Below are positions 3,910-63,700 of a stretch of DNA of 64,000 nt, one piece after another (the first letter of the stretch is position 1; each line of letters begins with the position of its first letter). A model generated the notes under the pieces. It saw only the letters and a list, made by a program, of their open reading frames with translations. It was not told the DNA's origin and did no database searches. Origin of the DNA: Eledone cirrhosa (Eukaryota); the NCBI GenBank assembly GCA_964016885.1, contig OZ024743.1:191766001-191830000 (forward strand). The letters are read 5' to 3'. The position numbers were made by a program, and so were the translations under genes.

Positions 3910-4013
3910 GTCGGGGTCATACCTTTTCCTATCACCCACTCTACTACCCTAAGTATTAAGTACTCTGGTGCGTTATGGTCCACCTGGTTCCTTACCACAA
4001 TTCCCTCGTTATA

Positions 4014-4049
<36 letters not shown>

Positions 4050-4054
<5 letters not shown>

Positions 4055-7000
4055 AATTAAGTTAAAAATGTACATCTACATATGCATACTGAAATACTAG
4101 TGTGTATATGAATACACACACGTATACATATGTAGGTGTAACAAGTCTTTCACTGGTTGCTTTACTGTGAGCAGCCCAGCTATTCTGTATGTAAACACAC
4201 AGACAAACCGGTTTTTAGAGTCATACTGGTTTTCGGGGGAACACCTTCCCTCTATTCTCCAGAAAGCCAGACAAGGAATATTGAACTAGTTTCGTTGTTG
4301 TTACAACTCATCAGCAATATTTACCTATCTACCGGCCCTTCTGGTGAATTGTAAAAGCACATATCGTTATATGCTTTTTCTATGAAAATTGTTTAAGCGT
4401 CAGTCATACAAAAGTGAGTTACAAACGAAACGAAATTTAATTTCGTTTCGTTATTCGTTTTTATCGTCTCCGCTGAACCGGTGCGTACTCACACTCTATG
4501 CAAATTAGTCTGCCCACTACTACTTTTCATAGAAAAAGCATATAACGATATGTGCTTTTACAATTCTCCAGAAGGGCCGGTAGATAGGTAAATATTGCTG
4601 ATGAGTTGTAACAACAACGAAACTAGTTCAATATTCCTTGTCTGGCTTTCTGGAGAATAGAGGGAAGGTGTTCCCCCGAAAACCAGTATGACTCTAAAAA
4701 CCGGTTTGTCTGTGTGTTTACATACAGAATAGCTGGGCTGCTCACAGTGAAGCAACCAGTGAAAGACTTGTTACACCTACATATGTATACGTGTGTGTAT
4801 TCATATACACACTAGTATTTCAGTATGCATATGTAGATGTACATTTTTAACTTAATTGTTTAAGCGTCAGTCATACAAAAGTGAGTTACAAACGAAACGA
4901 AATTTAATTTCGTTTCGTTATTCGTTTTTATCGTCTCCGCTGAACCGGTGCGTACTCACACTCTATGCAAATTAGTCTGCCCACTACTAATTTTCATAGA
5001 AAAAGCATATAACGATATGTGCTTTTACAATTCTCCAGAAGGGCCGGTAGATAGGTAAATATTGCTGATGAGTTGTAACAACAACGAAACTAGTTCAATA
5101 TTCCTTGTCTGGCTTTCTAGAGAATAGAGGGAAGGTGTTCCCCCGAAAACCAGTATGACTCTAAAAACCGGTTTGTCTGTGTGTTTACATACAGAATAGC
5201 TGGGCTGCTCACAGTAAAGCAACCAGTGAAAGACTTGTTACACCTACATATGTATACGTGTGTGTATTCATATACACACTAGTATTTCAGTATGCATATG
5301 TAGATGTACATTTTTAACTTAATTGTTTAAGCGTCAGTCATACAAAAGTGAGTTACAAACGAAACGAAATTTAATTTCGTTTCGTTATTCGTTTTTATCG
5401 TCTCCGCTGAACCGGTGCGTACTCACACTCTATGCAAATTAGTCTGCCCACTACTAATTTTCATAGAAAAAGCATATAACGATATGTGCTTTTACAATTC
5501 TCCAGAAGGGCCGGTAGATAGGTAAATATTGCTGATGAGTTGTAACAACAACGAAACTAGTTCAATATTCCTTGTCTGGCTTTCTGGAGAATAGAGGCAA
5601 GGTGTTCCCCCGAAAACCAGTATGACTCTAAAAACCGGTTTGTCTGTGTGTTTACATACAGAATAGCTGGGCTGCTCACAGTAAAGCAACCAGTGAAAGA
5701 CTTGTTACACCTACATATGTATACGTGTGTGTATTCATATACACACTAGTATTTCAGTATGCATATGTAGATGTACATTTTTAACTTAATTGTTTAAGCG
5801 TCAGTCATACAAAAGTGAGTTACAAACTAAACGAAATTTAATTTCGTTTCGTTATTCGTTTTTATCGTCTCCGCTGAACCGGTGCGTACTCACACTCTAT
5901 GCAAATTAGTCTGCCCACTACTAATTTTCATAGAAAAAGCATATAACGATATGTGCTTTTACAATTCTCCAGAAGGGCCGGTAGATAGGTAAATATTGCT
6001 GATGAGTTGTAACAACAACGAAACTAGTTCAACATTCCTTGTCTGGCTTTCTAGAGAATAGAGGGAAGGTGTTCCCCCGAAAACCAGTATGACTCTAAAA
6101 ACCGGTTTGTCTGTGTGTTTACATACAGAATAGCTGGGCTGCTCACAGTAAAGCAACCAGTGAAAGACTTGTTACACCTACATATGTATACGTGTGTGTA
6201 TTCATATACACACTAGTATTTCAGTATGCATATGTAGATGTACATTTTTAACTTAATTGTTTAAGCGTCAGTCATACAAAAGTGAGTTACAAACGAAACG
6301 AAATTTAATTTCGTTTCGTTATTCGTTTTTATCGTCTCCGCTGAACCGGTGCGTACTCACACTCTATGCAAATTAGTCTGCCCACTACTAATTTTCATAG
6401 AAAAAGCATATAACGATATGTGCTTTTACAATTCTCCAGAAGGGCCGGTAGATAGGTAAATATTGCTGATGAGTTGTAACAACAACGAAACTAGTTCAAT
6501 ATTCCTTGTCTGGCTTTCTGGAGAATAGAGGGAAGGTGTTCCCCCGAAAACCAGTATGACTCTAAAAACCGGTTTGTCTGTGTGTTTACATACAGAATAG
6601 CTGGGCTGCTCACAGTAAAGCAACCAGTGAAAGACTTGTTACACCTACATATGTATACGTGTGTGTATTCATATACACACTAGTATTTCAGTATGCATAT
6701 TAAGATGTACATTTTTAACTTAATTGTTTAAGCGTCAGTCATACAAAAGTGAGTTACAAACGAAACGAAATTTAATTTCGTTTCGTTATTCGTTTTTATC
6801 GTCTCCGCTGAACCGGTGCGTACTCACACTCTATGCAAATTAGTCTGCCCACTACTAATTTTCATAGAAAAAGCATATAACGATATGTGCTTTTACAATT
6901 CTCCAGAAGGGCCGGTAGATAGGTAAATATTGCTGATGAGTTGTAACAACAACGAAACTAGTTCAATATTCCTTGTCTGGCTTTCTGGAGAATAGAGGGA

Positions 7001-7259
7001 AGGTGTTCCCCCGAAAACCAGTATGACTCTAAAAACCGGTTTGTCTGTGTGTTTACATACAGAATAGCTGGGCTGCTCACAGTAAAGCAACCAGTGAAAG
7101 ACTTGTTACACCTACATATGTATACGTGTGTGTATTCATATACACACTAGTATTTCAGTATGCATATGTAGATGTACATTTTTAACTTAATTGTTTAAGC
7201 GTCAGTCATACAAAAGTGAGTTACAAACGAAACGAAATTTAATTTCGTTTCGTTATTCG

Positions 7260-7266
<7 letters not shown>
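4050..7266 (+). mobile_element. Family A: HHR tandem array (retrozyme-like); 467-bp unit x about 6.2 direct (4387-7266) preceded by an inverted partial unit (4050-4390); flanked by (TA)n
   Basis: Exact 467-bp period, few substitutions between units, one HHR per unit, (TA)n at 4010-4050 and 7265-7324. Confidence 0.9.
4591..4635 (+). ncRNA. Type I minimal hammerhead ribozyme, family A (also at 5058, 5525, 5992, 6459, 6926; inverted copy 4277-4321)
   Basis: AATATTG-CTGATGA-GTTG(taacaa)CAAC-GAAAC-TA-GTT^CAATATT: stem I AATATTG/CAATATT, 4-bp stem II, palindromic AACTAGTT stem III. Confidence 0.88.
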
Positions 7267-7326
<60 letters not shown>

Positions 7327-9486: not shown

Positions 9487-9532
<46 letters not shown>

Positions 9533-9540
<8 letters not shown>

Positions 9541-9648
9541 CAACAGATTAAAGTTTAATAAATATTTGCTCTACGGTTCTTATATATTTGATATATATTT
9601 ATCCTTATCAAGTCCTCTTTGGATTTTAGTCTTCAAATTTATTATTAT

Positions 9649-9652
<4 letters not shown>
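9533..9652. mobile_element. Mini-insertion of the Naiad-type PLE (inverted 3'-end fragment plus 5' tail) in (TA)n
   Basis: 9533-9557 matches 38126-38150 directly; 9558-9652 is the reverse complement of 38035-38127. Confidence 0.85.
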
Positions 9653-9730
<78 letters not shown>

Positions 9731-9734
<4 letters not shown>

Positions 9735-11462
9735 ATAAATGCTCTGAAATAGCGATATATATGTGAATATAGACATAGAATATTCGAAAATATTCTGTAT
9801 GTTTATAATAAACATTTTGAAGACCTAATCGCTATAGAATAGAATACGTCACGTATTACAATTAGATTCTCGATAAAAGCAAGGGAAGTAATCTACGCGT
9901 TTCATTCTCGTTAGAAATCATCAGGACTACATATCCAGTGCTTTTATCGAGAATGACACAGCTAGAGACTTATAGAATACTTAGCTGTGTACAGGAACTG
10001 GTTTGAAAGAGCGGTTGCCGGTCCGGCAGAAATTAGAAATTGGAATAAATGCTCTGAAATAGCGATATATATGTGAATATAGACATAGAATATTCGAAAA
10101 TATTCTGTATGTTTATAATAAACATTTTGAAGACCTAATCGCTATAGAATAGAATACGTCACGTATTACAATTAGATTCTCGATAAAAGCAAGGGAAGTA
10201 ATCTACGCGTTTCATTCTCGTTAGAAATCATCAGGACTACATATCCAGTGCTTTTATCGAGAATGACACAGCTAGAGACTTATAGTTCCTGTACACAGTT
10301 CCTGTACACAGCTAAGTATTCTATAAGTCTCTAGCTGTGTCATTCTCGATAAAAGCACTGGATATGTAGTCCTGATGATTTCTAACGAGAATGAAACGCG
10401 TAGATTACTTCCCTTGCTTTTATCGAGAATCTAAATGTAATACGTGACGTATTCTATTCTATAGCGATTAGGTCTTCAAAATGTTTATTATAAACATACA
10501 GAATATTTTCGAATATTCTATGTCTATATTCACATATATATCGCTATTTCAGAGCATTTATTCCAATTTCTAATTTCTGCCGGACCGGCAACCGCTCTTT
10601 CAAACCAGTTCCTGTACACAGCTAAGTATTCTATAAGTCTCTAGCTGTGTCATTCTCGATAAAAGCACTGGATATGTAGTCCTGATGATTTCTAACGAGA
10701 ATGAAACGCGTAGATTACTTCCCTTGCTTTTATCGAGAATCTAATTGTAATACGTGACGTATTCTATTCTATAGCGATTAGGTCTTCAAAATGTTTATTA
10801 TAAACATACAGAATATTTTCGAATATTCTATGTCTATATTCACATATATATCGCTATTTCAGAGCATTTATTCCAATTTCTAATTTCTGCCGGACCGGCA
10901 ACCGCTCTTTCAAACCAGTTCCTGTACACAGCTAAGTATTCTATAAGTCTCTAGCTGTGTCATTCTCGATAAAAGCACTGGATATGTAGTCCTGATGATT
11001 TCTAACGAGAATGAAACGCGTAGATTACTTCCCTTGCTTTTATCGAGAATCTAATTGTAATACGTGACGTATTCTATTCTATAGCGATTAGGTCTTCAAA
11101 ATGTTTATTATAAACATACAGAATATTTTCGAATATTCTATGTCTATATTCACATATATATCGCTATTTCAGAGCATTTATTCCAATTTCTAATTTCTGC
11201 CGGACCGGCAACCGCTCTTTCAAACCAGTTCCTGTACACAGCTAAGTATTCTATAAGTCTCTAGCTGTGTCATTCTCGATAAAAGCACTGGATATGTAGT
11301 CCTGATGATTTCTAACGAGAATGAAACGCGTAGATTACTTCCCTTGCTTTTATCGAGAATCTAATTGTAATACGTGACGTATTCTATTCTATAGCGATTA
11401 GGTCTTCAAAATGTTTATTATAAACATACAGAATATTTTCGAATATTCTATGTCTATATTCA
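9731..11462 (+). mobile_element. Family B: HHR tandem array; 310-bp unit, inverted arm 9731-10284 (about 1.8 units) and direct arm 10285-11462 (about 3.8 units); flanked by (TA)n
   Basis: Units start at 10298, 10608, 10918, 11228; near-identical; one HHR each. Confidence 0.9.
10366..10408 (+). ncRNA. Type I minimal hammerhead ribozyme, family B (also 10676, 10986, 11296; inverted 9888-9930 and 10198-10240)
   Basis: GTAGTC-CTGATGA-tTTCT(aacg)AGAAt-GAAAC-GC-GTA^GATTAC; palindromic ACGCGT; outer 16-bp stem ATTCTCGATAAAAGCA/TGCTTTTATCGAGAAT. Confidence 0.9.
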
Positions 11463-30548: not shown

Positions 30549-33161
30549 TGTCTGTGTGTGTGTGTCTGTGTCTGTGTGTGTGTGTGTGTATGGCATCGTG
30601 AGGTAAAGACCAGGACGGAGCGAGAAAAAATGGAATAGAGGAAGTGAAATGGCAGTGTAGCGCGCGCAGCCGGAAGGAGTGGTCAAGTCGAAAGAGTGGA
30701 AGAAGAGGGTGTTGACAGCAGGACATGTTTGTGAGAGGGAAGGGAGGAGGTAGTGCCCACAAAACAAAACAAGGAGGGAGAGAGCGATTGTGGCTACTAT
30801 GTGAGTGAGGGTTAGTTGGCTGTGTGTATACAGGCAGGTGTGTGTGGACAGAGGATGAGAGTAGCGTGTATATATGCATGTGTGTATGGAGGCATGTGTT
30901 TGTGTGTGTATAAAGCGTAGTGGTCATGCGAGGAGATATCGTCGGTGTGTGTGTGATAGACGCTGTGTATCGTTTTTTTTAATGGCTACATACACGTATG
31001 TAAGTGAATATACTGGTGTGTTTCAGGGTGTATGTGTGCGTGTGTGTGTTTCAGGGTGTGTGTGTGTGTGTGTTTCAGGGTGTAAGAGTGTGTGTCGTGT
31101 TTCAGGGTGCAAATGTGTGTCTGTGTGTGTGTGTTTCAGGGTGTGTGTGTGTGTGTGTTTCAGGGTGTAAATGTGTGTGTGAGGGCGTAAGTGTGTGTGT
31201 GTGTGTGTTTCAGGATGTAAGTGTGTGTGTGTGTGTGTGTTTCAGGGTGTAAGTGTGTGTGTGTGGTGTGTTTCAGGGTGTAAGTGTGTGTGTGTGTGGT
31301 GTGTGTTTCAGGGTGTAAGTGTGTGTGTGTGTTTCAGGGTGTAAGTGTGTGTGTGTGTGCTGTGTTTCAGGGTATAAGTGTGTGTGTGTGTGTGTGTGTG
31401 GTGTGTTTCAGGGTGTAAGTGCGTGATTGTTTTTGTAGTGTACGGAGGGAAATAACTAAACCAAGGTTGGGGTTCGAGACGTGCAGGGAGGAGTTAGTGA
31501 ATTAGAGGGGGACGGGTGGGAGAGAAAGAGGGGTGTTTGGATCTTTGAAATTAGTGCAGTTAGTGGTAGGTGGGGGTTATTAGTAGGTCAGTGTGGAGGT
31601 GAAGGAATACAGGAAGGTGCGAGTGGGTGGTGATGTGGGGCAGAGGGTAGTGTGTTAGTGAAGGGGTGGGTCAGTGGGTAGACGGTATGATGAGGGCAAA
31701 GGGTGTGTGTACGTTGTTGAGTGTGGATATGCGGAGTAGTGTAGTGGTGGTAGGTGTGGGTGGGAGGTTGAAGACAAGCGGAAGTGGAGTAGGTAGGTTT
31801 GTGAAGTTAGTGGTAGGTAGGGGTGGGCGTGGTCGGTGGTGGATTAGTGGTATCAGTCGTGAGGGGGCTAAAGGAAGAAAGTGTGGGGTTCAAACAGTTG
31901 GTGGTCCATGTCTGAATTCAGAAAATCGTCTGTTGCTCGGCGCTCAGTCGAGCATCTCGGGTTCCGGAGCACGCAATCAGGCTGCTGACGGTCATGTTGC
32001 GAGCGGAATGACCGGCTGAGCAGAAGTGTAGGGCGATGGGGGAACGCGTGCCGAGGCGGATGTCGTGGAGGTGCTCAGCGAACCGATCGGCCAAACGGCG
32101 GCCCGTCTGTCCGACATCAGTCGCACTGCACTGGGTGCAGCGGAGTCCGTAGATGAGGCTGGAGGAGGTGCAGCGAAAGGAGTGCCGGACAAGGAGGGAG
32201 TGGCCGTTGGGCCCCTGGAAGGTAGTGGTGTAAGTGATATGGGGGCATGTGTGGCAGCGGAATTGGGAGCAGGGGAGGGACACGGGGGAGGAAGAGTGGC
32301 TAAGAGGTAGGGAGCTACGGACGAGGAGGTTCCAGTGGTTGCGTGCGTGCTTGAAGGGGGGGGAGGGTTCGAGTCGGAAGACGAGGGATGTGGAGGAGTC
32401 TGACTGGAGGCGACGGAAGGGGCGTAGGAGAGTCCGTTGGGGGTAGGGTGGCAGGGTTGTAGGTGAGAAGGAAAGGCAGATGCTGGGTGTGGGGGCGAGG
32501 GTGTGGGGTGACGGTAGTGGTGCCGTGGACGGCGCAGGCGCGAGTGTAACAGCGTGGATAAGGGAGGAGGGGTAACCTCTCCGGGCGAAATGACGGACCA
32601 GAGAAAGGGTCTGGGTTTCAAAGAAGTTGGTAGTAGAGAATGGAGTGTTTGGTGGAAGTGGGATGGAGGGAGGTAAAATCGAGGTAGGAGTACGAGCAAG
32701 TACGTTTGAAGAAGGCGGAGGTGATGAGTGAGCGGTGGGAGAGGTCAATGGTGACGAAGATGTCCAAGAAGTGGTGGAGATGGAGGTGGTGAGTGAAGTT
32801 GAGGGAGGGATGGAAGGAGCAAAGGAATGAGAGAAAAGAGTCGAGATGCTCCTGGGTGAGAGTCGTGGCACCGATGCAGTCATCAATATAATGCCCGTAT
32901 AGTTCGGGAGTGGGGCTAGTGTATTGGGCAAAAATCTAGGCCTCAATGTGGCCAACGAATAGGTTGGTGTAGTGGGGCCCATTATTGTACCCATGGCTAC
33001 CCCGGTGACTTGCTGATAAAATTTACCCTAGAAGGAGAAGCAGTTGAGGGTGTGAACTAGCTCGGCGAGACGAAGGGGAGTGGAGGTGGAGGGGACGGGG
33101 AGGGACGATGGTCAATGTAGTGTTGGAGGGCGCGTAGGCCGTCAGTGTAGTGGATGGACGG
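30400..33161 (-). mobile_element. Degenerate GC-rich Penelope-like element (RT motifs at about 32850-33060, GIY-YIG to about 31900) with microsatellite-rich 3' region
   Basis: QVTGVAMGTIMGP, HYIDDC, ARRGYP, CSQFRCHTC, LIYGLRCTQC..VGQTGRRLADRFAEH; frameshifts; 5' end abuts TA at 33162. Left boundary uncertain. Confidence 0.85.
31015..31422. repeat. Minisatellite GTTTCAGGGTGT(AA)(GT)n, about 13 units
   Basis: Direct read. Confidence 0.9.
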
Positions 33162-34820: not shown

Positions 34821-34868
<48 letters not shown>

Positions 34869-35864
34869 TAAAATAACGGATTAAAGTTTAAGCAAAGAAT
34901 CGCTGCTTTCACACTTAACGGGATCTTCTGAAACTAACAAAGTCAATCTGTAAACGCAGACCTGGATATTTCAAAAAACGTTGCAACCGGAGGAAGACAG
35001 AAAGACGATACTTTGGTTCGTGGTAACGTTCGCTGGCAAAGAACGGGAAAAAACGAATAATACGTCATTAATAGGAGCGGTGAAAAACAATTACGCGCAA
35101 AGACAGAACCACGTTTATGGTATAAAAGAGGTCGTAGACTAATGTTCTCTTAGGTGGTGCATAGAGACGTTCTCTGGCAATGAACGAAAAAACGAAGATA
35201 ATAAGTCATATGTGGAGCGTAGAGAACAATAGTACGCAAAGACAAAACCACGTAAATGGTATAGCAGAAGTCGTAGACTAAATTCTAACTAGGAGACCAA
35301 ATGAATCTCCGCTACAGAGTTAAGAACAAAGTAAATAAATACAATACAGAAGTAATAGAAACAAATAAATACATACACGCAAACAGATACGTACATACAC
35401 AAGCATACGCAAAACTTTACCATAGGTATACAAAACCACGCACATATAAATATGTGTGTGTGTGTATGCTTGTGTACAAATAAATAAATAATTATATAAA
35501 CGTATATAAGTAAATAAATACGTATATAACAAGCGCACACGCATACCTACATATAAATACACGAATGCTCGGAGACGTAAGTCAACTAAAACAAGAAGTA
35601 CACATATACACACACCCACCATACGTACGAACCTGCATACTCACGCAGACGCAAAACTCCCGTATACACATAGCCAAACCCTAAATACCAGAATATGTAA
35701 AAATTATACGCCATAACAGTCAAATATACGTACGAGAAGGTATACATACCTTCACAAAACATACGGGTTATATATACTTACCTATGCAAATAAGTAAAGG
35801 AATAAACAAACAAATACTTAGCTCCCACATCAAGACGTAAAATATCCACGTATAGATCGTGCTA

Positions 35865-37991
35865 TCAGTTAGGGTATAACGTGGGGCTGTAATACAGGAA
35901 AGTTTTGTGCAATTTATGTTTACAAGCCGAAATTGCCTCAGATTTTTTGTTTAAGATGTGGTCTGTGGCGTAGAGTATTTCCAGGGCCTCAGCGGCGCAG
36001 AGGTCACATGGTCTTTTATTTCCGTTATACGATCTAGCCCTAGCTAGGATCTCCCAGTGTAACTTATATTTGGTGTGGTTGTCTTTTAGACTCCAGATAT
36101 AAGCTGAAAGTGACGTCATATTCCTTCTTAGAGGGTAACGAAAAGAATGGGTATGCATGTAAAGACGCTGCTTGAAACTATTGGCGGTTAACCCTATGTA
36201 GGCCCTACGGGACGTGGGTGTTACAACCTTACATTTGTAGACAATGTTACTAGAGAGGCATTTCCCGGATAGGGGGAAATCAGCCCGATTCCTACAATTA
36301 CAGTTAGTACTAACTACAGGGTTGCACGTGTTCCTACGGCTAGGTAGTTTAGCTAAATTTGAAGCTGTGATGTTATGTGCAAGGTTAGGAGTCGTAGAGT
36401 AAGAGATTTTAATAGTATTTCTATTAAAAATGTTACTATCTTTATGTGTAGGGGGAAAATGTTTCGTAATAAGGGAAAGAAAGATCTTAGCTAATGGTGT
36501 GGCCACCTCCATATTATATGGTGGGTTAAACCAACAAATGCGACGGGATCTATTTCTTCTAGGTCTATTTTCGTACTCTGTATATACTACCTTATCGACA
36601 AATCCACTTCGAGCAAGAGCTTCATTGAAATAAGTGGAATGGTCGTTGAAAATGCGCTCGTTGGTGGAAAGACGGGAAAGCCTCAACGAAACGTTTCTTA
36701 CCAGGTTCTTGGTTATGCTGGCAGGATGGTTGGAATGCTTACTTATGTAATTAAGCGTATCATTCGGCTTTCTATACGGGTAATACAACCCATTCAATAA
36801 ATTGAGGGTAACGTCGAGGTAATTAACGACCGAGAGATTGGCCTCAACCTGTATAGAGAGGTTGAAGCCTTTAAAGAAGGCTGTGAGTTCTTTTCTGAAC
36901 CTGTCGCAAGCACGAGGTCCGCACTTAGTCATGGTCAAAAGACCATCGTCACGGTACAAACCACCGCCTGCGTTGGGGAGTTCGTCCTTGATAGAGAAAA
37001 GAAGGAAAAGGCCAATAAGATCAGTAACCTCCGCAGAGTCACTGGCGCCCATACTCACGTCGAATGGGGTACTATTGGATTTTTTAATCCAAATAGAGTC
37101 GTCGAAATTAATCACCAACTTTCGGGCATTAAGAATGACATCAACTTCAAAATCCTTAACCACTGTGAGTGTTTTAGCGAAATTGATAGCTCTAAGGAGA
37201 AGTGGTAAAGTGATGGAGGAGTAGTAATTGTTGATGTCGAATTGGATAAAACGGCAATGTTCCTTGTTACATATGCCGTTGAACCAATCAATCACCGCGA
37301 AAGAATTGTTCCACAGTGCGAGAGGGGCCAAACTTCTAATTTCAGGTATAATTCTATCAAGAATCGTTTTACTAAGTCTACCTAAATCGGACTTCGTAGG
37401 GTTAATAAGCCGAATAGAGGGGTTGTTCGGAAAATTGGATTTGTGATCCTTCAGGGTAAAGTGGGGAGAGATAGGGTCCAGAGGTTCGGTCCGGTCCAGG
37501 ATGTTGAGATCGGATGTGATTTTAAACCCAGCATCGTTGATTTCATTGATGACGCACCGATTAGTTTTACGGTAATCCTTAGTTACAGCATTATGTAGTA
37601 GTTGATGGTAAGTACTGCGCTCCACTTGATATAGGTTGCCAGTTTTGTCGGAATGGACGTGCACGGCGTTAGAATCCTTAATAGAACGAGTTCTATTCTT
37701 CAGGTCTTGCTGGAAGGAATTGCTCCTATTCCGAAATTTGATATTCCGAATGAGTTCCAAAACATCATTTTCGAAGGGTAGCAATGCTGGGTTCCACGGA
37801 GGGTTATTATAAGTTTTAAATCCAAATTTATCCTGTTTGTTGTCTGCTTTTCGCGGATTATCGAAATAAAAGGCACGCCAACGCAACCTTTTAATGAACG
37901 CGTCTGTTTTCTGTATCAGGAGTTTTAGGTATGTTTTCCTGCTTGGTACGGGTATGTTCTTTGTAGAAATATTCAGATGTTGTTTCTGCAT
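35865..37991 (-). CDS. PLE reverse transcriptase plus C-terminal GIY-YIG endonuclease, 708 aa
   Basis: STKNIPVPS..KRLRWRA N-terminus, DKTGN, RLINP, QFDINNYY, MGASDSAE, LYRDDGL, NYLDV, CNC..PLSGKC, IVYKC..YIGLT, CDLC, NKKSE. Confidence 0.93.
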   Translation of the reverse strand: MQKQHLNISTKNIPVPSRKTYLKLLIQKTDAFIKRLRWRAFYFDNPRKADNKQDKFGFKTYNNPPWNPALLPFENDVLELIRNIKFRNRSNSFQQDLKNRTRSIKDSNAVHVHSDKTGNLYQVERSTYHQLLHNAVTKDYRKTNRCVINEINDAGFKITSDLNILDRTEPLDPISPHFTLKDHKSNFPNNPSIRLINPTKSDLGRLSKTILDRIIPEIRSLAPLALWNNSFAVIDWFNGICNKEHCRFIQFDINNYYSSITLPLLLRAINFAKTLTVVKDFEVDVILNARKLVINFDDSIWIKKSNSTPFDVSMGASDSAEVTDLIGLFLLFSIKDELPNAGGGLYRDDGLLTMTKCGPRACDRFRKELTAFFKGFNLSIQVEANLSVVNYLDVTLNLLNGLYYPYRKPNDTLNYISKHSNHPASITKNLVRNVSLRLSRLSTNERIFNDHSTYFNEALARSGFVDKVVYTEYENRPRRNRSRRICWFNPPYNMEVATPLAKIFLSLITKHFPPTHKDSNIFNRNTIKISYSTTPNLAHNITASNLAKLPSRRNTCNPVVSTNCNCRNRADFPLSGKCLSSNIVYKCKVVTPTSRRAYIGLTANSFKQRLYMHTHSFRYPLRRNMTSLSAYIWSLKDNHTKYKLHWEILARARSYNGNKRPCDLCAAEALEILYATDHILNKKSEAISACKHKLHKTFLYYSPTLYPN

Positions 37992-38144
37992 GATGAATAT
38001 AAGTCAGTAGAGTGCTCAACCGAAGGAGCCAAATAGTAATAATAATAAAATTGAAGACTAAAATCCAAAGAGGGCTCGATAAGGAAAATATATATCAAAT
38101 ATATAAGAACCGTAGAGCAAATATTTATTAAAATAACAGATTAA

Positions 38145-38195
38145 AGTTTAAGCAAAGAATCGCTGCTTTCACCCTTAACGGGATCTTCTGAAACT
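38145..38195 (-). ncRNA. Hammerhead-like motif with variant core in the pLTR (second copy 34885-34935)
   Basis: Minus strand: AGTTT-CAGAAGA-tCCC(gttaa)GGGt-GAAAGCAG(cgattct)TTGCTT^AAACT, with distal CAGATT/AATCTG pairing. Confidence 0.6.
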
Positions 38196-38334
38196 AACAA
38201 AGTCAATCTGTAAACGCAGAACTGGATATTTCAAAAAACGTTGCAACCGGAGGAAGACAGGAAGACGATACTTTGGTTCGTGGTAACGTTCGCTGGCAAA
38301 GAACGGGAAAAAAAAAAATATATATATATATATA

Positions 38335-41946: not shown

Positions 41947-41957
41947 TATATATATAT

Positions 41958-42110
41958 AGTAATAATAATAAATGTGAAGACTAAAATCCAAAGAGGGCTC
42001 GATAAGGATAAATATATATCAAATATATAAGAACCCTAGAGCAAATACAGAAGATCTCGTTAAGGGTGAAAGCAGCGATTCTTTACTTAAACTTTAATAT
42101 GTTATAAATA
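41958..42110. mobile_element. Second mini-insertion of the Naiad-type PLE (tail plus inverted 3' end) in (TA)n
   Basis: 41958-42047 matches 38035-38123; 42048-42110 is the reverse complement of about 38123-38190. Confidence 0.85.
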
Positions 42111-42156
42111 TATATATATATATTTAAAGGAATAGAGGTGTAACACACAAGTTATG

Positions 42157-53570: not shown

Positions 53571-54696
53571 CTTATATATAAATGAAAGTTCTTGATTCTG
53601 TGTATCCACCTAAAACTCAAAAATTATCGATCGGTCTCCCACAAATTTACATATATATATTCACTACATCACGAGACAAATAGTCGTAATAGTTGGTTTA
53701 CTTTACAGAGCTTTGAGCAATAAGGAATCGGACAATACTTGCATAACAGAAGGAGTGGCAATGGCTCTTGGTTGGGGTTTCAGACAAACTCTGGCAGTAA
53801 TTTCTCGGGGGGACCCGAGCAGATCAGGTTAATGCCTGCATGTGTTGGTGAGTTTGCTATCCAGCTACTCAAATTGCAAAATGGACTTCTTGAAAAGGAT
53901 TCCAAAGACCGGATTCCGTTGTTATTTGCTCATATAATTAAACTGGAATAGGAACTGATTAACAGAATATTTCCAAACATTCAGATCAGACAATGTGATC
54001 CCAAATGACTGTGAACGAGTAATCTTAACACTGAAAATTGTTGCTGTGAAAGAAACCAACAGAAAGTTACTGGATATGTTATCAGGAGAGGAAAAATGCT
54101 ACAAATCAGTTGACACAGTCATTTCCCAGGACCAGGTTGTAAACTATCCAACTGAAGATTTGAACAGCCACAAACTGGCAGGAATTCCTACACACACACT
54201 GAAGCTTGAAGCATCGGTTATGCTATTTCGTAATCTAGATCTTCCAACACTTTGCAATGGTACAAGACTCATCATCAAAAATATGATAGCCAATGTCCTA
54301 GAAGACGCAATCATGTCAGGAAAATTTGCTGGTGACAATTATTTCATTCCCAGAATACCTCTGAGGTCAACTGATTTGCCATTTGAATTTCAAAGGCTTC
54401 AATATCCTATCAAATTCAGTTTTGAGAGCAATCATTGAAAGTCTTTGGGTTGAACCTGACAGATCCTCTCTTTTCACGTGGTCAGCTTTATGTTGGTAGA
54501 ACAATGTTGTTTATCCAGAGGATTTAGAATATAAAAGTATCTGAACAAGATAATATCGTAATTCCTACTGCAATGATAATAGACATAGATACTAATTCCT
54601 TAGTCATATAGTTTGTAAGGAATTCTGAAGTCCTAACTTTACTGCATAATGTTACTTTGGGAGGATACGCAGACATCCCCAGGTACCTCTGCTATA
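53571..54696 (+). mobile_element. Internally deleted Helitron carrying a PIF1-like helicase C-terminal fragment (about 53950-54500)
   Basis: MLFRNLDLPTLCNGTRL, FIPRIPL..DLPFEFQRLQYPIK, FSRGQLYV; 5' TATATATAAATGAAAG; 3' CAGGTACCTCTGCTA resembling the other Helitron's end. Confidence 0.8.
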
Positions 54697-56355: not shown

Positions 56356-59300
56356 GGTGACCTTCGTAGGAAATCGTATCATCGTGAGCTCCGCAAAGGT
56401 TTGTTGTTTTCGTTTGTTTAAAATTGCCATTTATGGAAAATTTTTGTTGTTAACTGTTTATAAAGTCACAAAATTTGCTTTCGAAAAAGGACACTCAAAA
56501 AGATTGGGGCCTTGAGCCCAAAATTTAAACTTTTATAATTATAAAACAAAAATTTTCTTTGAAAAAATCATGGACGATCACAGCTACACTAAGCGGCTGA
56601 GAGCCTTCCTGACAAAATAACACCTCACACCAACACCACCATTGTAAATATTGCTACGTTTGCCAACACTAAAAATATAAGCAGTAGCAATAATTTAAAT
56701 TTGTCTCATGCAGACATTGATTTCCCGCCATTACCAATGACTGCAGATGTTGAAGCCGCCACCCACCACCACCACCACAGCGACAACAAAAACAAAAGAA
56801 AAAATAAATTGTCTCGTGACATCGAAATGGATTCACCCAGAATGGATTCTTCCAAACCGAAAACCACTGACGCCACCACCACCACAACTGAAACTAAAAA
56901 TAACAATAAAAAAATAACAATAACAACAACAGCAACAACAACAATGAGAATAACAACAACACCGTGTCGTTTGCCAAAGAAGCCAAAAAATGCGAAACAA
57001 TCCAGGTAACTTAGGAGGAATTAGATAAAGCCAAGAGAATGGTAAAGAAAGATGGGTTCAGGGTCAGCCTCACCAACACCACAAAAGTCACCAAAAAGCG
57101 AAACAGAAACAGACCCACAACAAACGCAAACGAAACAAAACAACCAAAACGATACACACTACACAGCATTAAATTTGAACAACAACCAACTCTTACACTA
57201 CATCCAACACAACACCAGCATCACAGAAAAAGACTACACAACACCCCAAAAGTTCACACCACCTCCACACATATAAATCACTCGCATCACACAGAAAACG
57301 TACATGACACTGAAACAGAAATTCCCCAAAGACATCGGAGGCTTCCGACAAGCACTCTCCAGGAGGATTTATAAGGACATTCTTCCGGAGGAGGCCACAA
57401 GCAGGGAAAAGGATGGAGAAACCATCCTTCCTCTACGAGAAGTACTGGTAAGTGGTCTTTCCCATCTTTTCCACTCCTTTTCAACATGTCCTCACTCAGA
57501 ATATGCAGCATAAATGCGCGTGGCTTGGGGTCGTCATGGAAGCAGGGCCACTTGCTCAACGACCTCAGGTCACTAAACATGGATGTAGTGGCCATCAGCG
57601 AGACCAGAATCTCCGAAGCACGGGCCTTCGCACCGATCTTCGGCGGCTACGATGTGTACGCATCTCCCAGCCGTCCTGGAATTGGGGGGAGAAGTTGCTG
57701 TGCCTTTTCGGTGAGGTTTGGATCTCGCCATACGGGCCATCATGCTGGACCCAGAAGGTAAATTGGTGGTGCTGGACGTGACCAGCGGAGACGGGCAAGC
57801 TTTCAGGCTAGTGGCCGTCTATGCCCCGACAGGAGCAGGGCGGCCTGATTTCTTCCGGCGTCTGGAGACCTTTCTTGGAATGTCCAGATCTTTAGTGTTA
57901 GTGGGCGACTGGAACGGGATCTTAGATACACGCTGGGACTGTGTGGGATCAGCGGATAAGGGAGGAGAGCCTCACCAACCTGCTCAGGCGTTTTGAACTG
58001 TCTGACAGGTACCGATTGGATTTCCCGAATGTGCCAATGTGGACTTGGACAAACCGCATCGGGTCATCCAGATCATATCTAGATAAAGTATTTTGTAGAG
58101 AAATAGATAGGTCTAGCATAGGCTGTCCACAATTCAAGATAGTCAGCTAGATCTGTGTGCTTGACTTAGATAGGCTTCATAGACGAGGACCCGGCTACTG
58201 GAAGCTAAACGCGTCCTTACCAGCGCGCAAAGCCTACAGAGACCGGATTAGAGAACTAGTTAAGCGGGCGTTGAAGGGGGCCATCGTCAACAACAAGTGG
58301 TGGTTTGCTCTGAAAAGAGCAATTAGAATAGAGTCCATCAGGTTTAGTAAGGCTTTAGCAATAGAGAAAAATAGAGCAGAGGGAGAATTAGTTAGAAAAT
58401 TAGACGAGGCGCTTAGCAAAGGCATCGCGACCGACGTACTTGCGGCGAAATTGGCCCTTGACCAATTCTTCAATGCAAAGCACGAAGGCTGCGTTGTCAT
58501 AGCTAGGGTGCGTGCTCTCAGACACGAGATGACGAAAGCCGTTCAATGGGCCCGAGTGTCGGAGGCGCGTCGTGGCAACAAAGCCACGATCCGGTCTTTC
58601 GTGGACCACAGGGCGCATGCTACTCGATCCCGGGCAAATGTGTGAAGCTTTTCAGGGACACTTCGCACAGCTGTTCGGGAGCAGCGGCGGGCCGGATCGA
58701 GGGATGGACTTTAGTGTCTACCTCGACGGACTGCCGCGGCTCTCGGCCACTGAGGCGGAGTGTTGCGAAAAGCCGATACCAGCCGCTGAAGTAAGGGAGG
58801 CAATGACTGGCTGCACAAGGGGTTAATCGCCTGATTTAGATTTTATGCCCTATGAACTTTACGTACAGATGCCAGACTTGTTCGGAGGCCTCTTGGCGGA
58901 CGGCTACTGCAACTGGCAACAGAACGGGAGAATTCCCAGCTCTGTGAGCAGAGGAGCTGTGGCGCTGCTGAGAAAGGATCCGAACAAGGGTGATAACATA
59001 GATAATTTCAGGCCCATAACTCTGCTAAACACAGAGTTCAAGATTTTGGCCAAGGTGCTAGCAAAGAGGTTAGCGCATGTCGTTTGTGGTCTGGTGGGAG
59101 AGGCGCAGACGTGCGCCATTCCTGACAGATCCATCCACGACAACTTCCACCTCATGCGATACATCGTAGAGAGGATAGCTAGGGAACCTGGCACGGGTGG
59201 GACCTTGACCAATTTAGATCAGTCGAAAGCATTCGATAGAGTCGACCATCGTTACCTAGCAGCAGTCCTGAGGGCCGCTGTCTTTGGGCCCGTCTTCAGA

Positions 59301-60742
59301 GGCTGGATCGCTGCCATGCACAGCGACATCTGCTCTGTGGTGAGAGTGAACGGTCACCTTTTGGAACCGTTCAACATCATGCGTTCGGTCCGCGAGGGAT
59401 ATCCCCTCTCGTCCCTCTTGTACGTATTGACTCTCGAGCCATTACTGCACAAACTGGAGACGTTGAGGGATGCAGAAGATCCGTGTCAGCATATGCGGAC
59501 GATGTCACCGTACTGGTGTCGAACGCCAAACACATCGAGGCGATGGGCACTACACTAAGAGAATACGAAGCGGTGACAGGAGCAATGATCAACCAGGAAA
59601 AGTCACATGGGCCTGCAACGCGGCACCTGGAGAGGCATGTCCATGCGGTCCAACAGCGTCGTCGGGCGCTGAACAGACGGACCGGTTAATTTGCTAGGGG
59701 TCTGGTTCGGTCCGGACCTCCAGACGGACAAAAACTGGGACGAGGTGACGAGCAGGGTGGCTTCTCTCACCCAGAAATGGGCGGAGAGGAAGCTATCCCT
59801 GAAAGGTCGAGCGGAGGTGGCTAACGTGTACATCGCGTCTGTCATCTACTACCGCCTGACGTCGTACCTTGTCCTAAGCCTCGCCTGACTGCGCTGGAGC
59901 GTTTGCTCTTTCGCTTTTTGTGGAAGGGACGCGCTCCGATGGTCAGGCGGTCCATCTGCTGTCAACATCCGCTACGTGGAGGGCTGGGCATGCCGTGGCA
60001 TCCCTGGCCTGGCAGTGCTACCGAGGAGCTTTGCCAGTTCCGGATAAACTCTACAGGCATGGAGGTGCCGTCAGCCGGGCATGTCCGAGATGCGCGCAGG
60101 GCGACGAAACCGTCCTGCACGCACTCGTCCAGTGTCCGAGCATTGCTGACTTGTGGGTTTATGTCGAACACCTGCTGTCGCGAGTGGGACGGATCCAGCT
60201 ATCAGCTGAGTCCATCGTGAGGATTGCCCCGCCCTCTTCCTTTAGCCGGGAAGGGCAGGCAGTTTTTATCTGTCTGGTGGCCATGGCGAAGGAGATAGTA
60301 TGGTGGACACGTTTGAAAGGGCTGAAGACGCGCACTTACCTCTTCGGTGATGCCCTGATTAACTTTTTCAAATTTCATTTGAAAAGGAAAATCAGGGTAG
60401 AGAGGGAAGTGCTCTCTTCCCAGCATTTTGTTGAAAGATGGGTGAGAGAAGCAAGTATGGCCCGAGTGAATGGGCCTACTCTGTGTATGTGTCTGTAAAT
60501 TTAAGGTGGAAAACTGGGAGAGGGCACTTGCCCTGGTTGTCAAGATCACTGTGGCCTTTTAATGGGCTTTCTCCACAAATGTCCCTCGGAAGTCTCCCCC
60601 CTATTGGGGAATTTTTCATTGTTTTTTTTATTACATCCTGTTTTTTTTTACACGCAGAAATGCCCATTTGTACCGTCCTGTATTGTCCTGTACTGTCCTT
60701 AATGTCTACTTTATGTAAACCCTTGTGGTTAATAAAGAAAGC
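56356..60742 (+). mobile_element. Tx1/L1-like LINE copy 1 (ORF1 internally deleted; ORF2 APE-RT-CCHC 57486-60498 frameshifted)
   Basis: SINARGL, LVGDWN, RPITLLNTEFKILAK, DQSKAFDRVDH, AYADD, CPRC..ETVLHALVQC; AATAAA then (TTA)n. Confidence 0.92.
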
Positions 60743-60787
60743 ATTATTGTTATTATTAATATTATTATTATTATTATTATTATTATT

Positions 60788-63700
60788 GGCGACCTACGTA
60801 GTAAATCGTATCATCGTGAGCTCCGCAAAGGTTTGTTATTTTCAGTTATTTAAAATTGCCATTCATGGAAATTTTTTATTGTTAACTGTATATAAGTGCA
60901 CATACATTGTTATCTGAAAAGGACACCCAAAAAGATTGGGGCATTGAGCCCAAAATTTAAACTTTTATAATTATCAAAAAAAATTTTCTTTGAAAAATTA
61001 TGGCTGACTCAGAGTCACTCCTTTTTTACAAACTGACACCTCACACCGACACCACCATTGTAAATCTTACTACGTTTACCAACACTAAAAAAATATAAGC
61101 AGTAGCAATATTTTAAATTTGTCTCAGGCAGACATTCATTTCCCGCCATTACCAATGACTGCAGGTGTTAAAGCCGCCACCACCACCACCACCGCGACAA
61201 CCACCCCCACCACCACCACCGCGACAACAGAAACAAAAGAAAAAAATTAATTAACTCGTGATATCGAAATGAATTCAGCCAAAATGAACTCTTCCACACC
61301 GAACACCACTGACGCCACCACCACCACAACTGAAACTAAAATTAATAATAACAAAAATAACGATAACAACAACAGCAACAATGACATTAAGAAAACCATC
61401 CTGAGTTTTGCCAGAGTAGCAAAACAGTGCGAAGCATTTCAGGTAACTCAGGAGGAATTAGAAGAAGCCAAAAAAATGGTAAAGAAAGATGGGTACAGAG
61501 TCAGCCTCATCCCCACACACACACCTAATAAAATGGAGAATCGGCGCCTATGCACCGTGTCTTATCGAACAATTAATATAAAATCGCGCCGAGTGGAACG
61601 GGCATCCGAGTCCCAAATCCAAAAAGCTTTGGGACATGTGTGGGCAAAAAAACCCACATCAGACGTGGGCAGAAGTATGGAACCGTGGAAGTGTTCTTTG
61701 AAACACCACAGGAGGCTAGAGAACACTCCATGGCCCCATTAAGAAGTGACGACTTCACACTCCTCCCAAGCTATTGTGGCCAGAGACTCGTAAAGATCAG
61801 GGTCACCCACGTTCCACCGGCCATCGAAATTCCCTGGCTAATAGCTGCCGTCCTCGCCGGCATCGAAGCCAACACCAAGATAATAGAAATAGCGAAAGAA
61901 AAGCAGGAGAACTGGTCCGGATCTGGGATGGAGCTCCTGATCCAAGCGGACCAAAAAAGCATTAAGGAGATCCCAGAGGTAATAGACCTCACTGACGGCA
62001 ACCACCTCACCGTAATTGTCGAAGGCAGGAGGCCTAGGTGTGTCGTTTGTGGTGAAGGAACCCACCTAAGGGCTTTCTGCCCTCAGGCTAAAAGGATGAG
62101 GCCACCTCTCCTACCCATCCCAGTGACTCAACCATCAACACCACCAGCAGCAGAGATGGCAGCAACAACTGTAGCAGCAACAACAGAAGCAACTGTAACA
62201 GCAACAACCCCAGCAACAGTAGCAAAACCAACACCACCCAACGCGCCAGAACTAGCACCAGCGCCTACACCATCCACCACGCCACAACCAAAACTAACGC
62301 CTGTGGAGGATTTTCCACTCCCCGGCCTATTACAACTGGAGACAGATTGTGACGACGAAGAGTGGGAAACGGTATCAGGAAAAAAGAAAAAATGAAACCA
62401 AAAAAGAAAAATACTCTCTTCCTTCCCCCTCCAAAAACAAAATACAGAGGGAAACAAATAAACTATCAAACAAAAAAGTTAGGACAGACGTACCACCATC
62501 CACACCAGCATCACCAACCCCATCACCCCAAACACCAACACCATCTCCATCATTAACCCCAACACCACCATCAACTACACCACAAAAGTCACCAAAATGC
62601 GAAACAGAAACAAACCCACAACAAACGCAAACAAAACAAAACAACCAAAACGATACACACTACACAGCATTAAATTTGAACAACAAGCAATTATTACACT
62701 ACATCCAACACAACACCAGCATCACAGAAAAAGACTACACAACACCCCAAAATTTCACACCACCTCCACACATAAAAATCACTCGCATCACACAGAAAAC
62801 GTACATGACACTAAAACAAAAATTACCCAAAGACATCGGAGACTTCCGACAAGCACTCTCCAGGAGGATTTATAAGGACATCCTTCTTGAGGAGACCACA
62901 AGCAGTGAAAAGGATGGAGAAACCGTCCTTCCTCTACGAGAAGTAAGGTAAGTGGTCTTTCCCATCTTTTCCACTCCATTTCAACATGACCTCACTCAGA
63001 ATAGGCAGCATAAATGCGCGTGGCTTGGGGTCGTCATGGAAGCAGGGCCACCTGCTCAACGCCCTCAGGTCACTAAACATCGATGTAGTGGCCATCAGCG
63101 AGATCAGAATTTCCGAACCACGGGCCTTCGTACCAATCTTCGGCGGCTACGATGTGTACGCATCTCCCAGCCGTCCGGGATCGGGGGGAGAAGTTGCTGT
63201 GATTTTTCGGAGAGGTTTGGATCTTGCCATACGGGCCATCTTCCTGGACCCAGAAGGTAAGTTGGTGGTGCTGGACGTGACCAGCGGAGACGGGCAAACT
63301 TTCAGGTTAGTGGCCGTCTATGCCCCGACAGGTGCAGAGCGGCCTGATTTCTTCCGGCGTCTGGAGACCTTTCTTGGAACGTTCCGATCTTTAGTGTTAG
63401 TGGGCGACTAGAACGGGATCTTAGATGCACGCTGGGATTGTGTGGGATTAGTGGATAGGGAAGGAGGGTGCAAGAGTCTCACCAACCTGCTCAGGCGTTT
63501 TGAACTGTCTGACAGGTACCGATTGGATTTCCCGAATGTGCCAATGTGGACTTGGACAAATCGCATAGGATCATCCAGATCATATCTAGATAGAGTATTT
63601 TGTAGAGAAATAGATAAGTCTAGCATAGGCTGTCCACAATTCAAGATAGTCAGCTACACGGACCACAAATTCGTGATCTGTGTGCTTGACTTAAATAGGC

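Follow-up and report, generated by a model that had tools for sequence, protein, structure and literature searches.

A hammerhead retrozyme array in Eledone cirrhosa with insertion ends resembling those of Penelope-like elements

Introduction

Animal hammerhead retrozymes and Penelope-like elements (PLEs) are the described systems closest to the locus reported here. For animal retrozymes, rolling reverse transcription of a circular RNA is the published model (PMC7229834). The axolotl hammerhead HHR_Amex1 is described there with a single-pair helix III closed by a palindromic tetraloop, and it cleaves well only as a dimer (PMC7229834). Regarding the mobilising partner, Cervera and de la Pena (2020) only propose PLEs in their main text (PMC7229834), and Li et al. 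(2026) base the connection between retrozymes and PLEs on their co-occurrence and on the phylogeny of pLTRs, the main text leaving the mechanism of mobilisation open (10.64898/2026.07.22.740005). PLE insertions, as outlined in PMC8557442 and PMC3846280, are typically recognised by partial tandem copies, by a 5′ copy in inverted orientation, by a tail at one of the ends and by a preference for microsatellites such as (TA)n. Biochemical analysis of purified PAc protein revealed cleavage of AT-rich DNA and extension of both strands; on the RNA, synthesis begins at two internal sites, the tail being the interval between them (PMC11167929).

Here, a tandem array (array A) is described in a 64-kb stretch of Eledone cirrhosa DNA (the window). 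The element belongs to a known class, the animal non-LTR retrozymes. The fold of its unit alone adds nothing new, and the added value lies in the junctions.

The array and its ends

Array A occupies positions 4387-7266 of the plus strand and has a GC content of 37%. The earlier note, made from the letters alone, had placed about 6.2 head-to-tail units there, and Tandem Repeats Finder gave the same picture, with a period of 467 nt, 6.2 copies (6.17 × 467 nt) and 99% matches. The whole element spans 4052-7266, starting at 4052 rather than at 4387, and lies between a left (TA)n tract (4010-4051), the inferred target site, and a right (TA)n tract (7264-7324); these flanks hide any target duplication, which in animal non-LTR retrozymes exceeds 4 bp when present. 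Its first part, 4052-4390, is an inverted partial unit on the minus strand, 339 nt long or 341 nt with a TA microhomology, which is 99-100% complementary to the forward units and has one private substitution (4345). The inverted copy and the forward array overlap by a 4-nt microhomology. Array A is probably a young tandem repeat that arrived, together with the inverted copy, in one recent insertion covering 4052-7266.

The spread among the units is 0.3%. The earlier note spoke of only scattered single substitutions, and the small number of events (nine in 3,220 nt) agrees with this; mapping of unit variants, however, showed one dinucleotide change (6701-6702) and one variant common to the non-adjacent units 2 and 4 (5119 and 6053), a sharing with a chance of about 0.02-0.03. 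No ATG-initiated open reading frame of at least 40 aa was found in 6255-7266. The longest stop-to-stop frame within the unit, on the antisense strand, comprises 70 codons and has no ATG; noted earlier as a 65-aa frame of incidental appearance, it is likewise regarded here as incidental.

The outer ends of the two blocks fall at two internal sites of the unit, whose coordinates are counted from the first base after the predicted hammerhead cut. The inverted block has its start at 232-234 (site P1) and its end at 361-365; for the forward block, the corresponding positions are 226-230 and 300-303 (site P2). The start of the forward block is thus 3-9 nt from that of the inverted block, a proximity with a chance of 0.036 (±8 nt). 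In the last unit, P1 lies after 7196 and P2 at 7266, and the 70 nt between these inferred reverse transcriptase (RT) start sites (7197-7266, plus strand) form a tail that exceeds the usual 30-40 nt.

The hammerhead of the unit

A type I hammerhead, which the earlier note had assigned to the unit, is indeed carried by 6/6 full units of array A and by the inverted copy. The cores in the array start at 4598, 5065, 5532, 5999, 6466 and 6933, with predicted cuts after 4628, 5095, 5562, 6029, 6496 and 6963. The core of the inverted copy, at about 4284-4314 (also given as 4290-4314), is the only minus-strand core of the element. In unit 6, core, Rfam match and circular fold place the hammerhead at 6915-6986 on the plus strand. 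Stem I has 7 bp plus a long extension, stem II has 5 bp with an AACA loop and pair probabilities of 0.89-0.99, and helix III consists of one pair only, capped by a palindromic CUAG loop. Cleavage would follow a GUU triplet, a weaker one than GUC or GUA.

Rfam at the gathering threshold gave no match across the 64-kb window. At the level of E-values, the best match of the unit 6 hammerhead was Hammerhead_HH9 (RF02275), over its full length, with 38.6 bits (E 2.6e-8), which does not reach the gathering score of 52. The likeness extends over the full length, including the internal loop in stem I; the helix III loop of family A is 5 nt shorter than that of Hammerhead_HH9, and the family A hammerhead sits in a tandem mobile unit. 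In the circular fold, a competing CUG/UAG helix has a probability of 0.91, so that 1.5 kcal/mol would have to be spent to reach the active form. Eight of nine Xenopus retrozyme dimers are listed as giving no cleavage in vitro (10.64898/2026.07.22.740005). Considering the sub-gathering score, the GUU triplet, the competing helix and the Xenopus dimers, activity of this hammerhead is not to be assumed; self-cleavage, for which covariation and core conservation speak, is plausible.

Predicted fold of the unit

The unit is predicted to be highly self-paired in the comparison with dinucleotide shuffles that the earlier note had suggested. The circular minimum free energy (MFE) of the consensus unit is −152.2 kcal/mol against −96.7 ± 5.7 kcal/mol for shuffles (lowest of 50, −111.9; z −9.8), and that of a cut-to-cut monomer with a variant is −143.8 against −96.2 ± 6.3 kcal/mol (z −7.5), with 0/100 dinucleotide shuffles as low. 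In the predicted fold, 68% of the unit is paired. The antisense strand folds well too (z −6.7), so that energy alone does not name the strand. The six helices listed in the earlier note are all fully pairable (7/7, 11/11, 14/14, 7/7, 8/8 and 13/13), with mean pair probabilities in the circular ensemble of 0.66, 0.95, 0.88, 0.97, 0.59 and 0.99 in the same order.

The "long rod" into which these helices had been arranged did not hold up: the fold is branched, with nine hairpin loops, a median pair span of 33 nt and only 9% of pairs spanning more than 100 nt. Its sole rod-like part is the long arm extending stem I (6898-6993, plus strand), in which 6898-6932 pairs with 6964-6993. A hairpin at about 6832-6866 (plus strand) holds ATGCAAAT and ATTTTCAT. 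Matches of a TA-rich hairpin to miRNA families were rejected, as they lie far below the family thresholds.

The shape of the fold bears on whether the element is an endogenised viroid-like or HDV-like rod RNA. A stable fold on both strands and the presence of a hammerhead would suit such an origin, which is nevertheless extremely unlikely and largely refuted: the fold is branched into nine hairpins, the ribozyme has one polarity only, the minus-strand core being confined to the inverted copy, no ATG frame is present, a sister family with 60% identity (family C) resides in the same window, and a search of viral contigs returned no match. Four metagenome loci from a pattern scan were rejected as chance matches without flanking stems.

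Conservation and variants of the family A RNA

Family C has a 466-nt unit, and its array lies in (TA)n-like tracts with an inverted block at 15934-16800, a 42-nt piece and a forward block at 16844-17592 (1.86 inverted and 1.6 forward units). Units A and C are 60% identical over their whole length (score 235; best of 100 shuffles, 50). The hammerhead core, loop 2 and a GGTAAA internal loop are kept. In stem II, 3/5 pairs are changed on both sides in the two-sequence RNAalifold, and in stem I 3/7 pairs are changed on both sides as judged by eye; the RNAalifold alignment was out of register at stem I, and only stem II and the conserved hairpin were used from it. The best conserved block, with 78% identity over 59 nt, lies just 3′ of P2 and contains the hairpin at about 6832-6866. 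In both families, ATGCAAAT pairs with ATTTTCAT in this hairpin (A, 6833-6865; C, 17221-17258), and a C-T mismatch is kept within it, which suggests a constraint on the primary sequence.

From its sequence, the hairpin may be a candidate promoter or protein-binding signal. The octamer of newt satellite 2 is a promoter, and by that parallel the hairpin may serve as a promoter element. The inner end of the inverted copy of A lies in the 3′ arm of this hairpin.

Sequences of unit A occur in six public sequencing runs from three studies, none of them listed as RNA. Four of these runs, of a kind not recorded, were aligned to unit A for the variant analysis; read depths in such runs are not copy numbers. 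None of the 37 variant rows falls in the hammerhead core motifs, and one changes GUU to GUC. At paired sites of the plus-strand fold there are 17 of 29 transitions, of which 14 preserve pairing and 3 disrupt it (null 0.54, p 0.015). For the antisense fold, the figures are 9/19 preserved and 10 disrupted. A structure test with all substitutions gave 8 (6 breaks and 2 compensated) against 11.0 ± 2.0 expected, which is not significant (P 0.10). Taken together, selection for plus-strand RNA structure in family A has moderate support. Among the joints listed for short contigs of the four runs, strand changes were absent and only head-to-tail joints occurred. In run X1, the commonest form of the family differs from 6722-7188 at many sites, for example 6791 and 6909, so that this run may represent a relative or array A may be a minor subfamily.

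Neighbouring arrays and Penelope-like elements

The window contains a third hammerhead array. Family B, with a 310-nt unit, lies in (TA)n with an anatomy like that of A: an inverted block at 9729-10285 and a forward block at 10296-11462 (1.8 inverted and 3.8 forward units), with a 13-nt duplication at the junction, which also fits a fold-back. Within the unit, its outer ends are separated by about 35 nt, as is typical of tails. Families B and C have GUA triplets and a palindromic helix III. An inverted 5′-truncated copy beside a partial tandem is therefore present in 3/3 hammerhead arrays of the window.

The outer ends of family C map to the same two sites as those of A with their roles swapped, the inverted start corresponding to 300-303 of unit A (P2) and the forward end to 233 (P1). 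The chance that both ends match P1 and P2 within ±5 nt is 0.001 with uniform sites and 0.004 with AT-rich sites only, in a post hoc test that comprises two insertions and relies on one pairwise alignment. Family B was left out of this test of homologous sites, as its global score with A (10.5; shuffle maximum, −15.5) is too weak for placing breakpoints. The inverted inner ends of A (361-365) and C (mapping to 364) both lie at the ATTTTCAT motif, about 25 nt after ATGCAAAT, a coincidence that is not significant (chance 0.09-0.20). The offsets between inverted start and forward start, 39 nt in B and 42 nt in C, are not significant alone either (chance 0.25 and 0.18). At the inner junction of C, the sequence jumps from the end of the 42-nt piece, exactly at P2, to the first base of the hammerhead core.

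A Penelope-like element at 34861-38313 (minus strand) has a 712-codon open frame and two pLTR copies. A Pfam scan of this frame gave no family; in its Atlas neighbours (0.96-0.99), part of the members have HTH_animal, GIY-YIG and RVT_1. Two pLTR pieces of this element, at 9531-9655 and 41955-42115, lie in (TA)n and consist of inverted and forward parts. In both, the inverted part starts about where the Penelope-like element itself ends and the forward part ends about 88 nt beyond that start site, an anatomy that they have in common with array A. By BLAST, no pLTR within the 64-kb window matches unit A, B or C; the element at 34861-38313 therefore stands as a control and not as a shown driver.

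Several further features of the window were recorded. Each pLTR copy of the 34861-38313 element carries a hammerhead-like motif with the core CAGAAGA instead of CUGANGA. The pLTR piece at 9531-9655 directly adjoins array B, and the inverted part of that at 41955-42115 ends on base 1 of the hammerhead-like core, which parallels one cDNA of family C at its own core. A 3′ fragment of another Penelope-like element lies in (TA)n at 20100-21260 (minus strand), with a minimal hammerhead at 20130-20158. A third, decayed Penelope-like frame was judged by eye at 31918-33027 (minus strand), where Pfam gave no family. A fragment of a Pif1-type helicase lies at 53959-54438, and fragments of LINE RT and endonuclease lie at 58151-63411.

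Proposed insertion mechanism

As the ends, the tail and the (TA)n flanks match the PLE hallmarks and the internal starts of PAc in vitro, we infer a Penelope RT for element A. With good confidence, resting on sequence and analogy, the element would have been inserted as a non-LTR retrozyme by such an RT priming on both target strands. Transcription of the plus strand would run across successive units. Since a single type I hammerhead would work poorly with so short a helix III, cleavage would take place in a double hammerhead formed between neighbouring units, and the 467-nt branched monomers would be closed into circles by a host ligase, as in the retrozyme family. A Penelope-like RT-endonuclease would nick both strands of the (TA)n tract, and each of the two 3′ ends would prime reverse transcription at one of two preferred sites inside the RNA, P1 and P2, 70 nt apart, on a template that is presumably a circle or more than one unit long. 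The P2-primed cDNA would have run for 6.17 units and the P1-primed cDNA for 339 nt, and head-to-head joining of the two through the 4-nt microhomology would give an inverted copy followed by the tailed tandem array, with (TA)n on either side. Since PAc needs RNA 3′ of its start site, the conserved block 3′ of P2 may, by analogy, be a protein-binding signal.

The enzyme could alternatively be a LINE RT acting by L1-type twin priming. Inversions at the 5′ end are a feature of L1, so the inverted copy would fit its behaviour, and LINE fragments with RT and endonuclease are present in the window. At A, however, neither poly(A) nor 3′ homology to a LINE is seen, and the ends fall inside the unit, at two sites that recur, like those of the pLTR pieces in the window. 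A LINE origin is therefore quite improbable, and the Penelope RT is kept as the likely enzyme.

As to the template, the earlier note had proposed rolling reverse transcription of a circle, which is also the published model. The parts of this proposal that stand are a structured, non-coding unit entered by RT and the homogeneity of the units; the junctions fit a linear multimer about equally well. Likewise, the mapping of unit variants gave the low spread of 0.3%, but the variant shared by units 2 and 4 is unlike independent RT errors on one circle. That one 467-nt circle was copied about six times over by the RT is rated at just under even odds, only slightly ahead of a linear multimer. The units are almost uniform, in contrast to the many differences among related copies in the public runs; in B and C, each arm is longer than one unit, the GUA triplets and palindromic helix III of these families should cut multimers, and retrozyme circles of coral, mussel and axolotl are reported in PMC7229834. 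Not obviously explained by a circle is how a long cDNA stopped at P1 after six turns, and the shared variant also speaks against it.

An uncut linear multimer that starts at the conserved hairpin and is primed twice, in the first unit and seven units downstream, is another template, by twin priming, and is rated almost as likely as the circle. It accounts for a forward block that starts where the inverted block was primed and for inverted blocks of A and C that both end at the ATTTTCAT motif, although the latter coincidence is not significant and the inner end lies inside a stable hairpin, where the RT could simply stall. PAc uses mainly uncleaved RNA as its substrate, and insertion still occurs with HHR mutants (PMC11167929); moreover, the hammerhead of A looks weak in view of its predicted competing helix; on the other hand, seven uncut ribozymes in one RNA are needed. 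The variant shared by units 2 and 4 fits this template, and later conversion or an assembly error could also give it.

The same variant would suit a short insertion of one or two units with the inverted copy, lengthened later by unequal crossing-over or slippage, in which case the unit count would be uninformative on the RT. This route is proposed in the main text of 10.64898/2026.07.22.740005. Against it stand the inverted arms of 1.8 (B) and 1.86 (C) units and the inverted copy of A, which is as near the consensus as the forward units, and we regard such expansion at the DNA level as unlikely. Rolling on a circle and copying of a linear multimer are thus rated about equally likely, the circle slightly ahead.

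Beyond this locus, it is somewhat probable that animal retrozyme arrays carry the full insertion footprint of a Penelope RT, comprising a tail, an inverted head and double priming in (TA)n at two conserved start sites within the unit, conserved across families 40% apart, with the hairpin just 3′ of P2 as a cis signal. If true, the junctions themselves would testify directly to the partner enzyme, for which the case has so far been made from co-occurrence and the phylogeny of pLTRs. Statistics on junctions could then decide between a circular and a linear template, possibly against the circle. The window offers three very young arrays within 14 kb with PLE-specific ends, and its pLTR pieces are a built-in control. 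If the footprint holds genome-wide, it would name the enzyme class, fix the start sites on the RNA and provide a candidate for the cis signal, and the question of circle versus linear template would become testable from the genome sequence and an existing PAc-type assay.

Relationship to known systems

With 467 nt, a GC content below 50% (37%), no ATG frame and high self-pairing, unit A has the features of retrozymes, and co-occurrence with PLEs is seen in the window (the 712-codon frame and the pLTR copies). None of the defining features that were tested failed, hence the assignment to the animal non-LTR retrozymes, a class further defined by self-cleavage and by expression as linear and circular monomers. 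Element A resembles the retrozymes described in PMC7229834 and in the main text of 10.64898/2026.07.22.740005 in its tandem arrangement of GC-poor, non-coding units that each contain a single type I hammerhead, in a highly self-paired predicted circle and co-occurring PLEs, and in a helix III like that of axolotl HHR_Amex1. Its unit length is just above the range of 150-450 nt given in PMC7229834 and inside that of 51-972 nt given in 10.64898/2026.07.22.740005, and it differs from the described retrozymes in its GUU triplet. Newt satellite 2, described in passing in PMC7229834, is likewise a tandem hammerhead repeat. It works as a dimer, as would unit A, and an octamer motif lies in the unit of both.

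The main texts of PMC7229834 and 10.64898/2026.07.22.740005 do not mention an inverted copy, a tail or a (TA)n target, and the footprint may already be in print. A literature search by title and the start of the abstract, with subscription papers outside its scope, returned no paper on inverted copies or tails at retrozyme arrays.

The interpretation of A as a PLE itself was rejected, as it has no RT/GIY-YIG frame. Unlike PLEs, it has no ORF, its hammerhead is full-size with an extended stem I instead of minimal, and its tail is about 70 nt. With the endonuclease-bearing PLEs, as outlined in PMC8557442, PMC3846280 and PMC11167929, it shares a partial tandem with an inverted 5′ copy, an AT-rich or (TA)n target and the lack of a visible target duplication, and the putative tail between P1 and P2 would correspond to the PLE tail between two internal RT start sites.
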